Of a stretch of 20,000 bases of DNA, positions 8,863-17,035 are shown one piece after another. The stretch spans positions 51,819 through 71,818 of IMG/VR virus record IMGVR_UViG_3300034105_002081; one strand, given 5' to 3'. Made by a program: the position numbers and the translations under genes. Below the pieces are notes generated by a model, which was not told the DNA's origin, made no database searches, and saw only the letters and a list, made by a program, of their open reading frames with translations. Position 1 is the stretch's first letter. Each line of letters opens with the position of its first letter. This stretch comes from an uncultured virus (IMG/VR IMGVR_UViG_3300034105_002081). Its lineage: Duplodnaviria > Heunggongvirae > Uroviricota > Caudoviricetes.

Positions 8863-9100
8863 TTTTTTAATCTATTCTGCTTTGGCGATTGGTACTTGCA
8901 TCTTAATTTCAATACTAAGAAAAAGTTTTGATCCTAGATCTATCCAAGACGCAGATTCAATACAATTAGGAAATAGATTAATAGAGTTTTTTGAGAAGGA
9001 TCAAATGGAAGAAATATATCAAAGATATTACGAATACGTAGATATGGGATTAACACCAAACGACGCTTTTGAATTGTTAGTAGGTGGCTTAAATGATTGA
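8846..9100 (+). CDS. Hypothetical protein with N-terminal membrane anchor
   Basis: AGGAG RBS before ATG 8846; hydrophobic FLIYSALAIGTCILISIL followed by RK. Confidence 0.65.
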   Translation: MKKSGDFLIYSALAIGTCILISILRKSFDPRSIQDADSIQLGNRLIEFFEKDQMEEIYQRYYEYVDMGLTPNDAFELLVGGLND

Positions 9101-9908
9101 TCTATGTGTAGTAAATCACAATACTAGAACACTGTTGCAAAGATTTTTGGACAATTTGCATTCAGATCTTAATAGTCCAAATGGTGCGCTCGTAAAAAAC
9201 TGGAATTTATACATAACCGATAATGATTCAACTGATGATTTTGTCCCTTGGATTAGGGAAAATGAAGATCGATATTTAATCAATAGGTTATTTTTAAGAA
9301 AAAATATAGGATACTCTGCTGCTGTAAATATGATGGCAGAAAAATCTTCTGGAGATATAATTGGTATTTTAAATGGTGATGTATGGATGACCTCTGAGGA
9401 TTGCATTAAAATAGAAAATATTTTTAATCAAAATCCAGAAATCCATATTCTTGGCCCTAAGCAGAGAGACGAAAATGGTTTCATAACTCATGCTGGTATA
9501 ATTGGTACAAATATTTCACCTAAGCATAGAGGATGGAAAGAACATGACCCTAATGATGTTTTATATAAAGACAGAGTTAATTGTGTAACAGTTTCTGGTT
9601 CAGCTTATTTTGTTAGAAGAGAAGTATGGAATGCTATGACTAACAACGAACAGTATAGGCAAATCCACCCGGAAGCAACAGGGGCATTTTTGCCAACGCC
9701 ACATTATTATGAAGAGACATGGTGTTCGTATTTTGCAAGACACTTGGGCTATAATGTAGTCTATGACGGATCAGTATCAATAGGCCATAGTTGGCACGCT
9801 AGTAGCCCAAAGCCAGGAGAGGGCATTAGCGAAGTTGATAAGTACTTTCCCATAAGTAGAGATATATTTCGTAGAGCTTGCGATTTCATAGGAATAGAAA
9901 GAGACTAA
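9093..9908 (+). CDS. GT2-family glycosyltransferase (WbbL/rhamnosyltransferase-like)
   Basis: Motifs VVNHN, DNDSTD, NIGYSAAVN, LNGD, VSGSAYFVRREVW, YYEE and a late His. Confidence 0.88.
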   Translation: MIDLCVVNHNTRTLLQRFLDNLHSDLNSPNGALVKNWNLYITDNDSTDDFVPWIRENEDRYLINRLFLRKNIGYSAAVNMMAEKSSGDIIGILNGDVWMTSEDCIKIENIFNQNPEIHILGPKQRDENGFITHAGIIGTNISPKHRGWKEHDPNDVLYKDRVNCVTVSGSAYFVRREVWNAMTNNEQYRQIHPEATGAFLPTPHYYEETWCSYFARHLGYNVVYDGSVSIGHSWHASSPKPGEGISEVDKYFPISRDIFRRACDFIGIERD

Positions 9909-9910
9909 TA

Positions 9911-11005
9911 GTGTCAATATCAACTTATGGTTCCCTATTTGCTGGGGTGGGCGGAATAGATCTAGGATTAGACCAAACTGGGATGGAATGTAAGTTTCAA
10001 GTAGAGATAGATCAAAATTGTCAACAGACACTTTCTTATCATTGGCCAGACGTTCCAAAGTTTGGTGATATTAAAAGCGTAAGTGGATACGATCTTCCTT
10101 TTGTCGATGTAATTACCTTTGGATCACCATGCCAAGATCTTTCCGTAGCTGGCAAGAGAGCTGGACTTGAAGGAGAAAAATCAGGTCTATTTCACGAAGC
10201 AGTAAGAATAATCAAAGAAATGAGAGAAAAATCAAATGGACAATATCCTAAATGGTCAATCTGGGAGAACGTCACAGGGGCCTTATCTTCCAACGGAGGT
10301 GCCGACTTCGGGCAAGTCCTCAACGAAATGGATGAAGCAGGGGCGTGTTTCAGCGAGTGGTCCGTGTTGGATGCACAACACTTTGGAGTCCCCCAAAGAC
10401 GAAGAAGAATATACTTGCTCTCTGTCTTTGATCCTACAATCGCCTCAAGATGTCCCGACAAAGTACTCCCTGTCAATGAGAGCAGCGCAGGGAATTCTAA
10501 GAAGAGTATCAAGCAAGGGCAAGAGCCTTCCAGAGAAGTTGCAAGTTGCCTTGGAGGAAGTGGCGAAGGAGCAGTACCTTCCAGTAGAGGACAGAACTTA
10601 GCCATACAAATGCTCGATGCTCAAAGAGTTGGTGACGTAAGACTTTACGAAGAACCAGTACAAACACTACCAGCTAGAATGGGCACTGGTGGAAACAATG
10701 TTCCACTAGTAGTAGATAATAGAACAACTTCCAATATAGTTGGTACGTTGAGTGCAAGAGATTTTAAAGGCGTTGGAAATCAATATGTTCAAGAACATAA
10801 ATTAGTTGTAGAATCTTCTAATCCAATTTACGTTAGACGTCTTACGCCAACAGAATGTGAAAGACTTATGGGTTGGCCAGATAATCACACTTTACACAGA
10901 GCTGATGGAAAGGTTAATTCTGATTCAACAAGATATAAGATGTGTGGAAACGGAGTAGCTAGTCCTGTGATAAAATGGGTAATTGAAAAAATTAAAAATA
11001 TATAG
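9911..11005 (+). CDS. DNA cytosine-C5 methyltransferase
   Basis: Motif I SLFAGVGG, IV GSPCQDLS, VI ENV, VIII PQRRRR, IX RRLTPTECERLMGWP and X YKMCGNGV. GTG 9911 is the likely start. Confidence 0.95.
   Translation: MSISTYGSLFAGVGGIDLGLDQTGMECKFQVEIDQNCQQTLSYHWPDVPKFGDIKSVSGYDLPFVDVITFGSPCQDLSVAGKRAGLEGEKSGLFHEAVRIIKEMREKSNGQYPKWSIWENVTGALSSNGGADFGQVLNEMDEAGACFSEWSVLDAQHFGVPQRRRRIYLLSVFDPTIASRCPDKVLPVNESSAGNSKKSIKQGQEPSREVASCLGGSGEGAVPSSRGQNLAIQMLDAQRVGDVRLYEEPVQTLPARMGTGGNNVPLVVDNRTTSNIVGTLSARDFKGVGNQYVQEHKLVVESSNPIYVRRLTPTECERLMGWPDNHTLHRADGKVNSDSTRYKMCGNGVASPVIKWVIEKIKNI
10236..10601 (+). CDS. Overprinted +1-frame protein inside the methyltransferase gene, M.EcoHK31I beta-subunit-like
   Basis: 121-aa ORF with GAGAG upstream of the ATG. 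KW..QG.....CWMHNTLESP..EE...SLSLILQ...P.KY.LS..AAQGILRR...KGK.LP..L..ALE matches the remembered beta-polypeptide pattern. GC is about 51% by hand count over 10261-10560. Confidence 0.75.
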   Translation: MDNILNGQSGRTSQGPYLPTEVPTSGKSSTKWMKQGRVSASGPCWMHNTLESPKDEEEYTCSLSLILQSPQDVPTKYSLSMRAAQGILRRVSSKGKSLPEKLQVALEEVAKEQYLPVEDRT

Positions 11006-12235: not shown

Positions 12236-13246
12236 ATGAAAAAAAGAGTATTACTCACAGGTGCTGGTGGCTTTGTAGGTCATCATACATTAGAGCATAT
12301 TTTCAAAACAACAGATTGGGATGTAGTTATCACTGACTCTTTCCGTCATCGTGGAGTGACAGACAGAATTACTTCCATTAATTCTTGGGAAGCGAACAGA
12401 CACCGTGTTCAGCTTGTCACGCACGATCTTACTGTACCTTTCTCTGACGTAATGATAAAAGATATTGGACACATTGATTATATTATTTCTATGGCTTCAG
12501 ATTCACACGTAGATAGATCAATTACAGACCCAGCTCCATTTATCATGAACAACGTAGCACTCGTTGTTAACATGCTAGAGCTTGCACGTAAAATTAAACC
12601 AGAAGCATTCTTACACGTCTCAACAGATGAAGTGTATGGACCCGCTCCAAAGGGTTATGCTCACAAGGAATGGGACACCATCCTTCCATCTAATCCATAC
12701 TCTGGATCAAAAGCCGCACAAGAAGCAGCGTGTATATCTTACTGGCGTACCTTTGGCGTTCCAGTAATCATTACTAACACCATGAATATTATTGGTGAGC
12801 GTCAGGATCCTGAAAAGTTTATTCCAAAGATTATGTATTGTCTTGAGAAGGATATCCCAATGACAATTCATGGCACTCCTGAGAATGTTGGATCAAGATT
12901 CTACTTGCACGCAAGAAACCAAGCAGATGCTTTAGTCTTTATCTTAAATAATCTTCCTGCAATAGATTATCCAAATTCAGATCGACCAGACAAATATCAT
13001 ATTGTTGGCGAAAGAGAAATCGATAATCTCGAGATGGCGGAACTTGTAGCAGAGTATTGGGGTAAAGAACTCAAGTTTAAGTTTGAAGACTTTCATACAA
13101 CAAGACCAGGACACGATCTTCGCTATGCATTAGATGGAACAAAGCTAGCAAATGCCGGATGGGTTCCCCCAATGCCATTAGAAAAGTCTTTAGAGCTAAC
13201 AATAGAGTGGACTAAACAAAATCCACAGTGGCTTTGGAGAGATTGA
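12236..13246 (+). CDS. rmlB: dTDP-glucose 4,6-dehydratase-like NAD-dependent SDR (RmlB/RfbB-like)
   Basis: Motifs TGAGGFVG, SHVDRSI, STDEVYG, PSNPYSGSK, Q.PEKFIP and RPGHDLRY. Confidence 0.88.
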   Translation: MKKRVLLTGAGGFVGHHTLEHIFKTTDWDVVITDSFRHRGVTDRITSINSWEANRHRVQLVTHDLTVPFSDVMIKDIGHIDYIISMASDSHVDRSITDPAPFIMNNVALVVNMLELARKIKPEAFLHVSTDEVYGPAPKGYAHKEWDTILPSNPYSGSKAAQEAACISYWRTFGVPVIITNTMNIIGERQDPEKFIPKIMYCLEKDIPMTIHGTPENVGSRFYLHARNQADALVFILNNLPAIDYPNSDRPDKYHIVGEREIDNLEMAELVAEYWGKELKFKFEDFHTTRPGHDLRYALDGTKLANAGWVPPMPLEKSLELTIEWTKQNPQWLWRD

Positions 13247-13266
13247 TTAAAAAGTTTTCCTACAAG

Positions 13267-13295
13267 TTGATTCAATCGACTCATACTGATATAAT
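13267..13295 (+). promoter_or_regulatory. Near-consensus housekeeping-sigma promoter
   Basis: TTGATT (13267-72), a 17-nt spacer ending TGa, then TATAAT (13290-95); intergenic. Confidence 0.8.
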
Positions 13296-13344
13296 TAAAC
13301 CGTCATATTAATTGGCTTAACAGTCACAAACAAAAGGAAAATAA

Positions 13345-13527
13345 ATGTCAGATAATAAGTTCAAGTATTTTGAGGTTACTACAACTGCTCTTGTAAAGGC
13401 TAGCTCAAAAGCTGATGCAGAAAAGTTGGCCATGGGCCGTCGTGGCATCACTGGCGAAGTTCTCTCTAAGCACACAGAGATTGATCGTATTTCGGCTATC
13501 GATGCTCGTGAGATGCTAGAAGCCTAA
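13345..13527 (+). CDS. 60-aa hypothetical protein, monocistronic
   Basis: AAAGGA RBS; GCT/CGT/AAG-rich codons; own promoter and terminator. Confidence 0.8.
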   Translation: MSDNKFKYFEVTTTALVKASSKADAEKLAMGRRGITGEVLSKHTEIDRISAIDAREMLEA

Positions 13528-13542
13528 TCCAATGTTTGCTGG

Positions 13543-13576
13543 AAAAGTAGGGGGAATATCCCCCTACTTTTTCTTT
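13543..13576 (+). terminator. Rho-independent terminator, potentially bidirectional
   Basis: AAAAGTAGGGGGA-ata-TCCCCCTACTTTT followed by TCTTT. Confidence 0.88.
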
Positions 13577-13590
13577 ACTAAAGAGGTTAT

Positions 13591-14283
13591 ATGATAATTG
13601 CACAAATAGTTGGAAGAAATGAATCCAACAGATATTTAGAAGAAGTTTTAGAAAGATTATCTACTCAAGTAGATAAAATAGTTTTTACAGACGACTGCTC
13701 AACCGATAACACACCCCAGATTGCCTCGAAGTACTGTGAAGTATTTCAGACTGAATCTCCTTTATTTACAGAACACGAAGGAAAGTTAAGAGCTTTTGCT
13801 TGGGGTAATCTGGAGAATGTTGCGTCTTTAGGTGATTGGGTTTTAGCAATAGATTGTGACGAGCTGCTCTATCATTCATCCGAAGCAGATCTAAGAGATG
13901 TAGTAAAAGTTTCTCCTTATGATGTCATAAATATAAAGTTTTATCATATGTGGAATGAAACTCAATATAGAATAGATAAGGCTTGGGCTCCTACTAATAG
14001 CTCTAGACTATTCAGATATCAGTCTGGTGGTGGTTTTATAAACAGAAAACTGGCTTGTGGTTCTGAACCAAATTATGTAGTTGATTGGGTCAGACAAAGA
14101 AATTATTGGGCAGACTCTGGATTAATGATGAAGCATCTTGGTTATGTAAAAGACGAAGACAAGCAGGCTAAGTACGAAAGATACTCTACTTTAGACGGTG
14201 GTGAGTTTCATAACATCAATCATATCAATTCAATAATAGATACAAATCCAGCACTTATAAATTGGGGAAATTTCGGTATATAA
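13591..14283 (+). CDS. GT2-family glycosyltransferase
   Basis: Motifs RNE..YL, DDCSTDNT, W.LAIDCDE (DxD) and HLGY...K..RY; AGAGG RBS. Confidence 0.88.
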   Translation: MIIAQIVGRNESNRYLEEVLERLSTQVDKIVFTDDCSTDNTPQIASKYCEVFQTESPLFTEHEGKLRAFAWGNLENVASLGDWVLAIDCDELLYHSSEADLRDVVKVSPYDVINIKFYHMWNETQYRIDKAWAPTNSSRLFRYQSGGGFINRKLACGSEPNYVVDWVRQRNYWADSGLMMKHLGYVKDEDKQAKYERYSTLDGGEFHNINHINSIIDTNPALINWGNFGI

Positions 14284-14971: not shown

Positions 14972-15587
14972 TGATGATCTTTTTCTTATAGATCTTCTTT
15001 TAGATTCTAATTTATCTTTGCCTGAAATAGCCAAAGAACTTGATGTTTCAATTAAAGATTTAAATAAAAAAATAAATCATTTAGGTCTTAATTGGATTAA
15101 ACAACAAAAGAAAAAAACATCAAGAGGTCAGGCAGCTTTGACTTCTGTAATGAAAAAACTTCTTCCTAATGAAAAGATTATTAACGAATATCATTTAGGG
15201 GATAGATTAAGACTAGACGTTTATTGTCCTAGTTATAAACTGGCTGCAGAGTTTCACGGTAGACAACATTTTTATTATACCGAAAGATTCTTTGATTCTA
15301 AATATGATTTTGAAGAAGCTCAAAAAAGAGATGTTATCAAAATGCAAATGTGTAAAGATCAAGGTATAGCTCTTGTTGTATTTCGCTACAATGATCTTTT
15401 GACAGAGGAGTCTGTATACTCTAGAATATTAACCGCAATTAGAGATAGTCAATGGAAAGAAAAAGAGCCTAATCCATTAAAGAAGAAAGTAACTGATAGT
15501 GAATTTTATCAGGAGCAAAAAAGAAAAAAAAGCGAACAGAATAAAAAGCTCTACAGAGAAATGAAGCAGAGAAAGAAAAACCAATGA
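14943..15587 (+). CDS. HTH plus Vsr/DUF559-like endonuclease-domain protein
   Basis: HTH SLPEIAKELDVSIKDLNKKI; SRGQ, LRLDVY, AEFHGRQH and RD..K...C...GI.LV.FRY; basic tail. Confidence 0.75.
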   Translation: MKRKIDTEIDDDLFLIDLLLDSNLSLPEIAKELDVSIKDLNKKINHLGLNWIKQQKKKTSRGQAALTSVMKKLLPNEKIINEYHLGDRLRLDVYCPSYKLAAEFHGRQHFYYTERFFDSKYDFEEAQKRDVIKMQMCKDQGIALVVFRYNDLLTEESVYSRILTAIRDSQWKEKEPNPLKKKVTDSEFYQEQKRKKSEQNKKLYREMKQRKKNQ

Positions 15588-17035
15588 CAGACCAAGATAC
15601 TGATATACAAGAATATCCTATTGAATATCAATTATTTGCTCTTTCATTTAAGGATCCAGGAGCTATTGAATTTTTTAAAGAACATATAGATCCAAGCGAA
15701 GTTGGTTTTATACATAATCAAAAGGGTATTGGTGAATTCTACGAAGCTATTTTATCTTTCCATGATTTAACAAAATTGGACCTAGTTGATCCAGTAGCTT
15801 TTAAGACCTGGTTAGAATCAGAAACCAATATACACACTGCACTTGGTGGATCAGCTGGTGTCGACTCAATGATGGATACTTTGGTCAAGCTAGAACTATC
15901 AAATAAAGAATCAGTATCTAAGATAATAAACCACAAAGCATCGAAAAGAAAACAGTTAGATTACTTAGAGGAACTTAAACATCTTGTTTTAAATAAGGGG
16001 ATAAAAAGTGATCAAGAGATTGAAAGAATCAATAGCCTAGCTTCTTCAATACGTGACTTAGAGAATACGACTGAGTACAATCCACTAGATACTGTCACCA
16101 CTGCTACTCAGATGGTAAATAGGGTAGATGACCTACTTAACGTACCAGACTTCATGCCTACGCAATTTAAGGCCCTTAATAGGGCTATGGGGTACACTGA
16201 TGAGGGAGGCTTCTTCAAAGGGGCCGTACACGCTATCATAGCACCCTCTGGCAAGGGTAAGAGTACGTTTGCCAAGTGCCTAGTTAACCACTGGGTCAGT
16301 ACAGGCTATAGGGCTTTGTATGTCAATTTCGAGGAAGCACAATCCCACTGGGAGAGAGTATTGATGACCCAAGTGATTGGGCAGAACGTGTACGCCAATG
16401 CTGACAGATGGTCAGTTGAGGAGAAGCTAAAATACTCAAACCTTTTCAAGTCTAGATTATTAGAATGGGGAGACAGATTAATGGTTAAACATGATCCCGA
16501 TACTCCTTACTTCGAAGATCTAGAAAAATGGCTTAGAGATATCTTGGGCCATGGTAAAGATATACCAGATGTAATAGTTATAGATACGATTCAGTCTATG
16601 TTTACCAAAGGAAAAGGTAAAGCTCGTTGGGGTGAATTCGAAGAGATGATGGTTCGACTTGAAAAGTTGGCTAGAGATATGAATTGCGTTCTTATCATTA
16701 CTGCTCAAGAGAATTCAAATAGAATGAAAGAAAAACGAGAAGTTGTGCAGCAATCTGATACCGGTGGATCTTTAGCTATTCAACAAAAATGTGCAGTAAC
16801 AATATTTATTACAGAAAAAAGATTAGTTAGTGGCGATGAAACTGAAGACGACACAGTCATGCAATTGCAAATCCCCAAAAACAGAATTACTGGATCTACT
16901 TTCGTTTACGATCCTCCTCTAGTTAGATATGTTGATTCTAGAAAATCATATGAAGACTACGAAATAGTTACTGAAGAATCCTATGAGTCTAATTCTATAC
17001 TAGATGATTTATTAAATGGAGGTATGTTAAGCTAA
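15584..17035 (+). CDS. DnaB-like (SF4) replicative helicase
   Basis: Walker A APSGKGKST, NFEE, Walker B IVIDTIQ, ITAQ.N and KNR arginine finger. Confidence 0.92.
   Translation: MTDQDTDIQEYPIEYQLFALSFKDPGAIEFFKEHIDPSEVGFIHNQKGIGEFYEAILSFHDLTKLDLVDPVAFKTWLESETNIHTALGGSAGVDSMMDTLVKLELSNKESVSKIINHKASKRKQLDYLEELKHLVLNKGIKSDQEIERINSLASSIRDLENTTEYNPLDTVTTATQMVNRVDDLLNVPDFMPTQFKALNRAMGYTDEGGFFKGAVHAIIAPSGKGKSTFAKCLVNHWVSTGYRALYVNFEEAQSHWERVLMTQVIGQNVYANADRWSVEEKLKYSNLFKSRLLEWGDRLMVKHDPDTPYFEDLEKWLRDILGHGKDIPDVIVIDTIQSMFTKGKGKARWGEFEEMMVRLEKLARDMNCVLIITAQENSNRMKEKREVVQQSDTGGSLAIQQKCAVTIFITEKRLVSGDETEDDTVMQLQIPKNRITGSTFVYDPPLVRYVDSRKSYEDYEIVTEESYESNSILDDLLNGGMLS

Follow-up and report, generated by a model that had tools for sequence, protein, structure and literature searches.

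Can a DNA methyltransferase gene that is complete in its own reading frame encode a second protein in another frame, and what would such a protein do? This question is raised by a locus in a stretch of 20,000 nucleotides (nt) from an uncultured virus of the Caudoviricetes (IMG/VR record IMGVR_UViG_3300034105_002081, positions 51,819 to 71,818), referred to here as the window. Its C5 cytosine DNA methyltransferase (MTase) gene contains an open reading frame (ORF) of 121 amino acids (aa) at 10236..10601. A first-pass annotation made from the sequence read this ORF as a second chain resembling the beta subunit of M.EcoHK31I, overprinted on an MTase whose motifs IX and X both remain in the main frame, and the analysis below upholds this reading. 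The ORF is very likely a real gene. Taken as a whole, the statement that this nested gene specifies a small methyltransferase subunit with a conserved helical module appears probable to us.

Position and composition of the nested reading frame

The offset between both frames, (10236-9878) mod 3 = 1, places the ORF in the +1 frame of the MTase. As the first-pass annotation stated, it is 121 aa long and starts just before motif VI: its ATG sits 29 nt 5′ of the main-frame ENV codons, and the ORF ends 230 nt short of motif IX. The rise in guanine-plus-cytosine (GC) content to about 51% was confirmed, with 51.3% over 10261-10560 and 50.0% over the ORF, compared with 35.2% for the window and 37.3% for the remaining MTase gene. 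Among 100 homologous loci, the median GC fraction is.508 for the overlap and.482 for the remaining gene, and the overlap is higher in 72. The rise is conspicuous in this AT-rich genome because the dual-coded overlap stays near 51% GC whatever the background. The purine-rich candidate ribosome-binding site could be assigned to GAGAGA (10222-10227), though it is weak as a Shine–Dalgarno (SD) sequence.

No Pfam family matches the +1 product, and the ESM Atlas returned only viral 'hypothetical protein' clusters (score 0.95). The family phrog_16143 ('DNA methyltransferase', 139 positions) matches residues 9-85 of the product with an E value of 6e-8, and the +1 frame is therefore sometimes called as a gene in phage records. 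This family is an automatic one that takes its name from the neighbourhood and leaves part of the conserved tail of the +1 product uncovered.

Conservation of the +1 frame in homologues

Homologues were gathered with the main-frame protein of the window as the query, giving 80 viral and 80 metagenomic loci that encode MTase relatives, plus four phage records. The motif VI-VIII pattern was present in 152 of 165 sequences, which correspond to 108 distinct proteins, and frames were counted on the 100 coding sequences (CDSs) of at least 280 aa. In all 100 CDSs an open +1 frame of 104-163 codons spans motif VIII and the stretch that follows, so that the avoidance of +1-frame stops, which the first-pass annotation proposed to examine in homologues, is borne out. 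The +2 frame reaches at least 100 codons in 3 of these CDSs and the three antisense frames in 18-33.

The start signals recur as well. The first start codon of the +1 frame is ATG in 92 of the 100 CDSs and the stop upstream of it is TGA in 86; the start follows this stop after 4 codons in 66 CDSs and after 1 codon in 23. Most homologues carry GAGGGAG or AAGGAG 7-8 nt before the start, formed by the main-frame codons for K-E-M-R-E-K. Towards the C-terminus, the strict tail pattern G[IVL]L.R was found in 96 of the 108 distinct proteins. The other 12 comprise three cut by locus ends, seven with near variants (GIIRR, GVVRR, RILRR) and two divergent ones (loci L019 and L077).

A sequencing error or a compensated frameshift in the assembly was considered as the origin of the ORF and rejected. 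Sequencing error is unlikely because five contigs encode an identical MTase protein, and the layout is common to 91 of 109 loci.

Some relatives, on the viral contigs L015-L019 and L021-L023, have much shorter MTases (290-301 aa) with a minimal variable region and nevertheless keep a full-length +1 ORF. Its length is 121 aa in both L015 and L018, whereas L019 has a tail that diverges after KYYLS.

The frame on which selection acts

Selection on the two frames was compared in a codon alignment of 32 CDSs, each with a protein at least 44% identical to the MTase of the window over at least 250 residues (Table 1). At about codon 177, the diversity maximum moves to MTase codon position 1, where the +1 frame has its wobble position, and it reverts directly after the +1 stop. 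Position 1 is more diverse than position 3 in 38 of 48 tail columns (Wilcoxon p 1.8e-5), while in the two flanks this holds for 12 of 104 and 14 of 95 columns (Wilcoxon p 1.5e-15 and 2.2e-12, respectively). Furthermore, diversity at MTase position 3 is lowered to.40 over motifs VI-VIII and.32 over the tail, compared with.61 outside (Mann-Whitney p 1.5e-15 and 1.6e-13, respectively). The synonymous-site constraint for which the first-pass annotation proposed a test is thus found in both parts of the overlap.

Table 1. Nucleotide diversity by MTase codon position and mean pairwise amino-acid identity in the three forward frames.
Region	Diversity, position 1/2/3	Identity, main/+1/+2 frame
5′ non-overlap	.30/.21/.60	66%/31%/31%
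Overlap, motifs VI-VIII	.28/.20/.40	68%/51%/47%
Overlap, tail	.54/.34/.32	35%/55%/32%
3′ non-overlap	.39/.29/.63	59%/29%/27%

In the tail region, conservation of the MTase frame is no higher than that of a non-coding frame, and it is the +1 frame that is constrained. Across motifs VI-VIII, the sequence is restricted from both frames, and much of the +1 'conservation' there mirrors MTase codons. Judging from the codon alignment, the +1 ORF is demonstrably under purifying selection of its own. The MTase frame had been described as linker-like over the second half of the ORF, in agreement with its 35% identity over the tail; confidence in the structure prediction is low there too, though this low confidence covers the whole variable region.

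Relation to M.EcoHK31I

The closest studied counterpart is M.EcoHK31I, reportedly described by Lee, Kam and Shaw in 1995 as an alpha/beta C5 methyltransferase of E. coli (YGGCCR) and also treated in PMC2836561 and PMC3404938. Its sequence was located by means of the primers for truncating beta that are given in the supplement of PMC2836561. One 31-nt primer part matches a gene annotated 'DNA cytosine methyltransferase' in 80 of the 5,426 E. coli genomes and has no match in the plasmid collection. Because 10 of 11 primer parts match the E. coli locus L165 exactly (the eleventh in 14 of 16 bases), this locus is treated here as M.EcoHK31I or a near-identical allele. Its MTase CDS of 309 aa adjoins a NotI-family endonuclease, and the alpha frame contains motifs I-VIII and X, without motif IX. 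The +1 frame holds an ORF of 176 aa from an ATG, which runs through the motif VI-VIII overlap, the tail (..LSQVLET...LINRAKERGQMLPEPLLQAYQ..), a linker and motif IX (VRRMLPSEYERLQGFPENWT). The second ORF has the same offset as in the window (+1, across motifs VI-VIII).

In a blastp comparison, the +1 product of the window shares 35% identity with the L165 beta over 85 aa, within the first ~110 residues, while the motif IX of this beta aligns with the main frame of the window (52% identity over 31 aa). Part of the resemblance is imposed by the overlap. The W..NTLE.P..EE pattern, which the first-pass annotation had likened to the beta chain, is present, but it represents the +1 reading of the motif VIII codons (VLDAQ.FGVPQRRRR) and is forced by the homology of the MTases. 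A profile of the tail only was built without the window sequence, with 200 shuffled tails as the control. It scored 17.4 bits for the E. coli +1 frame and 88 bits for the window +1 frame, the best shuffled tail reaching 8.8 bits, and none of the other five frames of either gene exceeds the shuffles. The suggested alignment of the ORF to beta is in this way substantiated, and from blastp and the tail-only profile the ORF is therefore identified as a beta homologue without motif IX. At the level of sequence comparison, these results show homology to M.EcoHK31I beta beyond the part that alpha forces.

Both systems thus have a +1 ORF that starts before motif VI, overlaps motifs VI-VIII and carries the same post-VIII tail. 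They differ in that the M.EcoHK31I beta (176 aa) includes the motif IX missing from its alpha and the enzyme is paired with a NotI-family endonuclease, whereas in the window the +1 product, at 121 aa, does not continue past the tail, motifs IX and X are both in alpha, and the MTase has no endonuclease gene next to it. The supply of motif IX by beta, a feature of M.EcoHK31I, is absent from the window because motif IX sits in the alpha frame there.

For M.EcoHK31I, the two-chain enzyme and independent translation have been shown experimentally, according to the accessible part of PMC2836561. As given in that part of the report, beta is encoded in another frame of alpha and translated from its own start(s); silent removal of the beta start codons abolishes methylation, and beta supplied in trans restores it. 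Internal ATGs were able to rescue this beta; in the +1 product of the window, internal Met codons are at residues 33 and 46. With N-terminal deletions of beta, association with alpha falls progressively, and activity is kept to about delta-67 and drops at delta-70. Mapping these primers on L165 places delta-65 to delta-70 exactly where the conserved tail starts.

Breadth of the family and movement of the C-terminal half

A profile was made from 75 +1 products (alignment A1) and run on 1.84 billion representatives, yielding 5,614 representative clusters at E <= 1e-3 and 4,032 at E <= 1e-10. Among the best 150 matches, the module starts within the first 25 residues in 127. Eighty-three of the 150 proteins end at most 30 residues past the module, a short form as in the window, while 17 extend for 31-90 residues and 50 for more than 90. 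When 20 proteins, mostly long ones, were scanned, 17 carried the C-terminal part of PF00145 (hidden Markov model (HMM) positions ~240-324, motifs IX-X) after the module.

The long form is exemplified by P0029 and P0036, close relatives from phage C5 methyltransferases. They share the start, the overlap and the tail with the window; however, the target recognition domain (TRD) and motifs IX and X follow the tail in the single +1 chain, whereas in the window these elements belong to the alpha frame and come after a linker encoded over the tail. The C-terminal half of P0029 closely resembles the main-frame C-terminal half of the window. Among the 109 loci, 91 have motif IX contiguous in the alpha frame, with a complete alpha and a short beta as in the window. 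The C-terminal half therefore changes frame among close relatives, and the tail is in the +1 frame relative to motifs I-VIII in every locus examined. One long-beta protein of 342 aa (P0087) has two tandem copies of motif IX (AVRRLTPLECLRLQGFPD...) about 40 residues apart, suggesting either that part of the protein was duplicated or that motif IX received an insertion.

The dmt CDS of phage P1 contains an unannotated +1 ORF of 162 aa with an ATG start, predicted at nt 2309 of locus L004, and the same tail, likewise within a C5 MTase CDS. Unlike in the window, this C5 MTase forms a fusion with an N6-adenine methyltransferase domain, and extra sequence is inserted between its motifs VI and VIII. 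In Mycobacterium phages Omega (L001 882-2186) and Dallas (L002 879-1998), C5 MTases of the cluster-J type have been annotated as a pair of neighbouring genes, followed directly on the 3′ side by a gene for an HNH endonuclease. A +1 ORF of 157-159 aa with the conserved tail is kept in both; motif IX is in a separate +1-frame ORF in Dallas and in frame 0 behind a stop in Omega.

Predicted structures

The AlphaFold2 model of P0029, a homologue and not the product of the window, has a mean predicted local distance difference test score (pLDDT) of 58 (40-sequence alignment). Residues 1-59 are below 50 and motifs IX-X range from 65 to 90, while the tail forms a block with pLDDT 81-96, made up of a short helix (62-65) and two longer ones (80-93 and 99-111). 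The 'ordered helices' that had been read in the +1 frame are thus supported to the extent that the tail of this homologue can speak for the window. In the model of the window MTase itself (22-row alignment), residues 1-190 and 305-364 are confident and residues 192-302 have pLDDT below 50; the MTase segment under the tail helices falls within this low-confidence part, as does the whole variable region.

VIA-align of the Foldseek matches to the P0029 model gave C5 MTases in 45 of 46 cases among the matches listed, with weak Z scores of at most 4.2. The structural alignments start at the tail and map it just after motif VIII, at ~185-187 of M.HhaI, ~187-192 of Dnmt2 and ~806 of DNMT3A, with Z of only 2.1-2.3 for M.HhaI and up to 4.2 for DNMT3A. 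For a further protein, P0081, the Pfam alignment begins at PF00145 HMM position 185. It may be hypothesized, and no more than that, that the modelled tail would correspond to the canonical post-motif-VIII segment of single-chain C5 MTases.

Proposed role and alternative explanations

We propose that 10236-10601 would be dual-coding, with two proteins made from one DNA stretch. The +1 product would start at its own ATG just before motif VI, and its N-terminal ~59 residues, which are probably disordered, may be a tolerated consequence of the positions available for a start. The functional part would then be the last ~55 residues, a putative compact helical module encoded over a poorly conserved MTase linker. 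The short product may dock on the methyltransferase as a small subunit and supply this module in trans. Docking is proposed because the module is shared with the EcoHK31I beta and the long-beta chains, and deletions into it weaken association. C5 MTases tolerate bisection best in the proximal variable region, as stated in the accessible part of PMC3404938, and the natural break in the window is located in this same place. Overall, we regard it as rather probable that the +1 product is a methyltransferase subunit. A stronger version is also conceivable, but we hold it only tentatively and consider it somewhat doubtful: the tail module would be an obligatory, separately made piece of the enzyme across the clade, a hidden chain needed by seemingly intact MTases, whose tail is always in the +1 frame while the C-terminal half moved repeatedly. 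If so, the MTase of the window and the C5 half of P1 Dmt would be inactive or mis-specific without the second chain.

Several observations weigh against the subunit proposal or temper the evidence behind it. The homologues are mutually related, so that 100 of 100 open frames are not 100 independent events, and the share of 91 in 109 loci with the layout of the window is biased because these were collected with its main-frame protein. In the chance test, synonymous codons were permuted within each CDS, 300 times for each of the 100 CDSs, and the observed length proved only modestly improbable: the 125 open codons of the window's copy (identical locus L005) were reached in 2 of 300 shuffles, in 28 of 100 CDSs at most 3 of 300 shuffles reached the observed length, and in 6 of 100 none of 300 did. 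ORF length alone is weak evidence, and the comparative evidence is much stronger. The beta profile had no match at E <= 10 among PDB sequences, and PF00145 had none at E <= 10 among the 75 profile members, which gave just scattered single matches to unrelated families; the equivalence of the tail to a canonical MTase element is read from the weak structural alignments and the P0081 alignment. Furthermore, the main-frame enzyme has every canonical motif and may be active alone. That the +1 product is translated in this phage, binds the MTase or is required in any way for activity is what we infer, and its SD-like GAGAGA is weak.

It is least probable that the ORF is non-coding, a side effect of conservation in the MTase and of the local GC content. 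About half of it mirrors motif VI-VIII codons, the synonymous shuffles still leave the +1 frame open for a mean of ~45-75 codons, and an antisense ORF is open over the same interval. However, over the tail it is the MTase frame that is conserved like a non-coding frame and the +1 frame that is conserved; moreover, the +1 frame is open in all 100 CDSs with conserved start signals, and for the homologue M.EcoHK31I such a product has been proven experimentally (accessible part of PMC2836561). Hardly more probable is a decaying relic of a long beta, in which the C-terminal half was re-fused to the alpha frame and the leftover tail has no function. Close relatives do differ in the frame that carries the TRD and motifs IX and X, and the tail is degenerate in a few lineages (L019, L077), but both the phase switch and the difference between 55% and 35% identity come from the very clade with the short-beta layout, and the start signals are kept.

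A third explanation, which we regard as very unlikely, is that ribosomes enter the tail through a programmed +1 frameshift after motif VIII, giving a product of motifs I-VIII plus tail. The shift region contains a run of Arg codons, and for the long-form relatives one such shift would be enough to give a canonical full-length enzyme. In the window, the shifted product would be without TRD, IX and X; the conserved ATG, upstream stop and SD-like site mark an independent start, and the start-removal and complementation results for EcoHK31I beta (accessible part of PMC2836561) likewise argue against a shift. Finally, the +1 product could be real and yet only share the locus, as a regulator of MTase expression or activity or as a factor in DNA binding or counter-defence. 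All motifs are present in the main frame, the tail resembles no known MTase segment in sequence, and it is basic (RR..KGK) and, in the P0029 model, forms two helices, all of which would suit such a role. In contrast, the module is covalently part of the TRD and/or motif IX chain in the long forms and in M.EcoHK31I, and M.EcoHK31I deletions into it lower association with alpha (accessible part of PMC2836561). A role outside the enzyme is therefore unlikely in our judgement.

Relation to other systems and significance

With the nested gene read as a subunit, the window can be compared with known two-chain enzymes. In M.AquI, a natural two-chain C5 MTase, the break also lies within the variable region (accessible part of PMC3404938). 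In enzymes of this type, however, separate chains split motifs I-VIII from IX-X, whereas alpha is complete in the window and the second gene is nested in another frame. The kind of arrangement is known from one enzyme, M.EcoHK31I, of which the window is a variant with a complete alpha and a beta reduced to the shared module. No description of a conserved family beyond M.EcoHK31I was found in the searchable literature, which leaves out subscription papers including Lee 1995 and Fung 2006. The GeneTack survey of frame transitions (PMC3711429) makes no mention of C5 methyltransferases in its accessible part.

Standard annotation reports one protein at such a locus. If the second chain is needed, the lone annotated gene could mislead on activity or specificity, and phage methylome work, restriction-evasion studies and enzyme mining would be affected. 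M.EcoHK31I would then no longer be an isolated curiosity and would become the studied member of a very large family, with phage P1 among the carriers. The family is also a clear example from nature of extended dual coding on one strand, with selection visibly passing between frames within one gene.

The methyltransferase gene and its surroundings

The features of the locus are collected in Table 2. As in the canonical M.HhaI type, all motifs (I, IV, VI, VIII, IX and X) are in a single MTase chain, and the profile matches M.HhaI at E 1e-42, spanning motifs I-VIII and IX-X. The MTase frame is open from TTG 9878 in the ORF listing, but the start is likely GTG 9911, giving 364 aa. In the region 9093-9911, the upstream family-2 glycosyltransferase gene ends at 9908, two bases before this GTG; TTG 9878 would overlap it by 31 nt.

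Table 2. Features of the methyltransferase locus in window coordinates.
Feature	Position	Strand	Remarks
C5 cytosine DNA methyltransferase ('alpha')	9878..11005	+	PF00145 E 5.2e-59, residues 18-373
Antisense ORF, 137 aa	10192..10605	-	No Pfam match
TGA closing the +1 frame, 4 codons 5′ of the ATG	10221..10223	+	Read from sequence
SD-like GAGAGA, weak, 8 nt 5′ of ATG 10236	10222..10227	+	Built from main-frame M-R-E codons
Overlapping gene, 121 aa ('short beta')	10236..10601	+	+1 frame of MTase, ATG start; phrog_16143 E 6e-8
N-terminal 59 codons of the +1 gene	10236..10412	+	Overlap motifs VI and VIII; probably disordered
Motif VI (ENV)	10265-10273	+	MTase frame
Motif VIII (QRRRR)	10394-10408	+	MTase frame
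Conserved helical tail, +1 residues 60-112 (..SLSLILQ..VPTKYSLS.RAAQGILRR...GKSLPEKLQVALEE..)	10413..10571	+	Invariant and near-invariant columns cluster here
Motif IX (VRRLTPTECERLMGWPDNHT)	10832..10891	+	MTase frame; aligns with E. coli beta motif IX and M.HhaI 267-319
Motif X (GNGVASPV)	10946..10969	+	MTase frame; alignments to L165 and M.HhaI

The antisense ORF was considered as a third gene and rejected, as antisense frames of at least 100 codons occur in only 18-33 of 100 homologues; it is a by-product of the GC-rich dual-coded stretch and lies outside the system.

In a blastn search of phage records with the MTase gene, the best matches had 11-18% coverage at 67-74% identity, with no close DNA relative among these records. 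The window represents a phage module of nucleotide metabolism and replication with every gene on the + strand, including genes for a class II ribonucleotide reductase, ThyX, dCMP deaminase, two family-2 glycosyltransferases, an SNase-like nuclease, a DenV-like glycosylase and a DnaB-like helicase. A scan of the window proteins for families found no restriction enzyme gene adjoining the MTase. A second rise in GC content, to 46-47% over 16051-16500, lies within the DnaB-like helicase gene (15584..17035), where no alternative ORF of at least 90 aa is listed. Amid the DNA-metabolism genes, 12236-14280 holds genes for an NAD-dependent epimerase/dehydratase and the second family-2 glycosyltransferase, a possible sign that DNA or a surface structure is modified with sugars.

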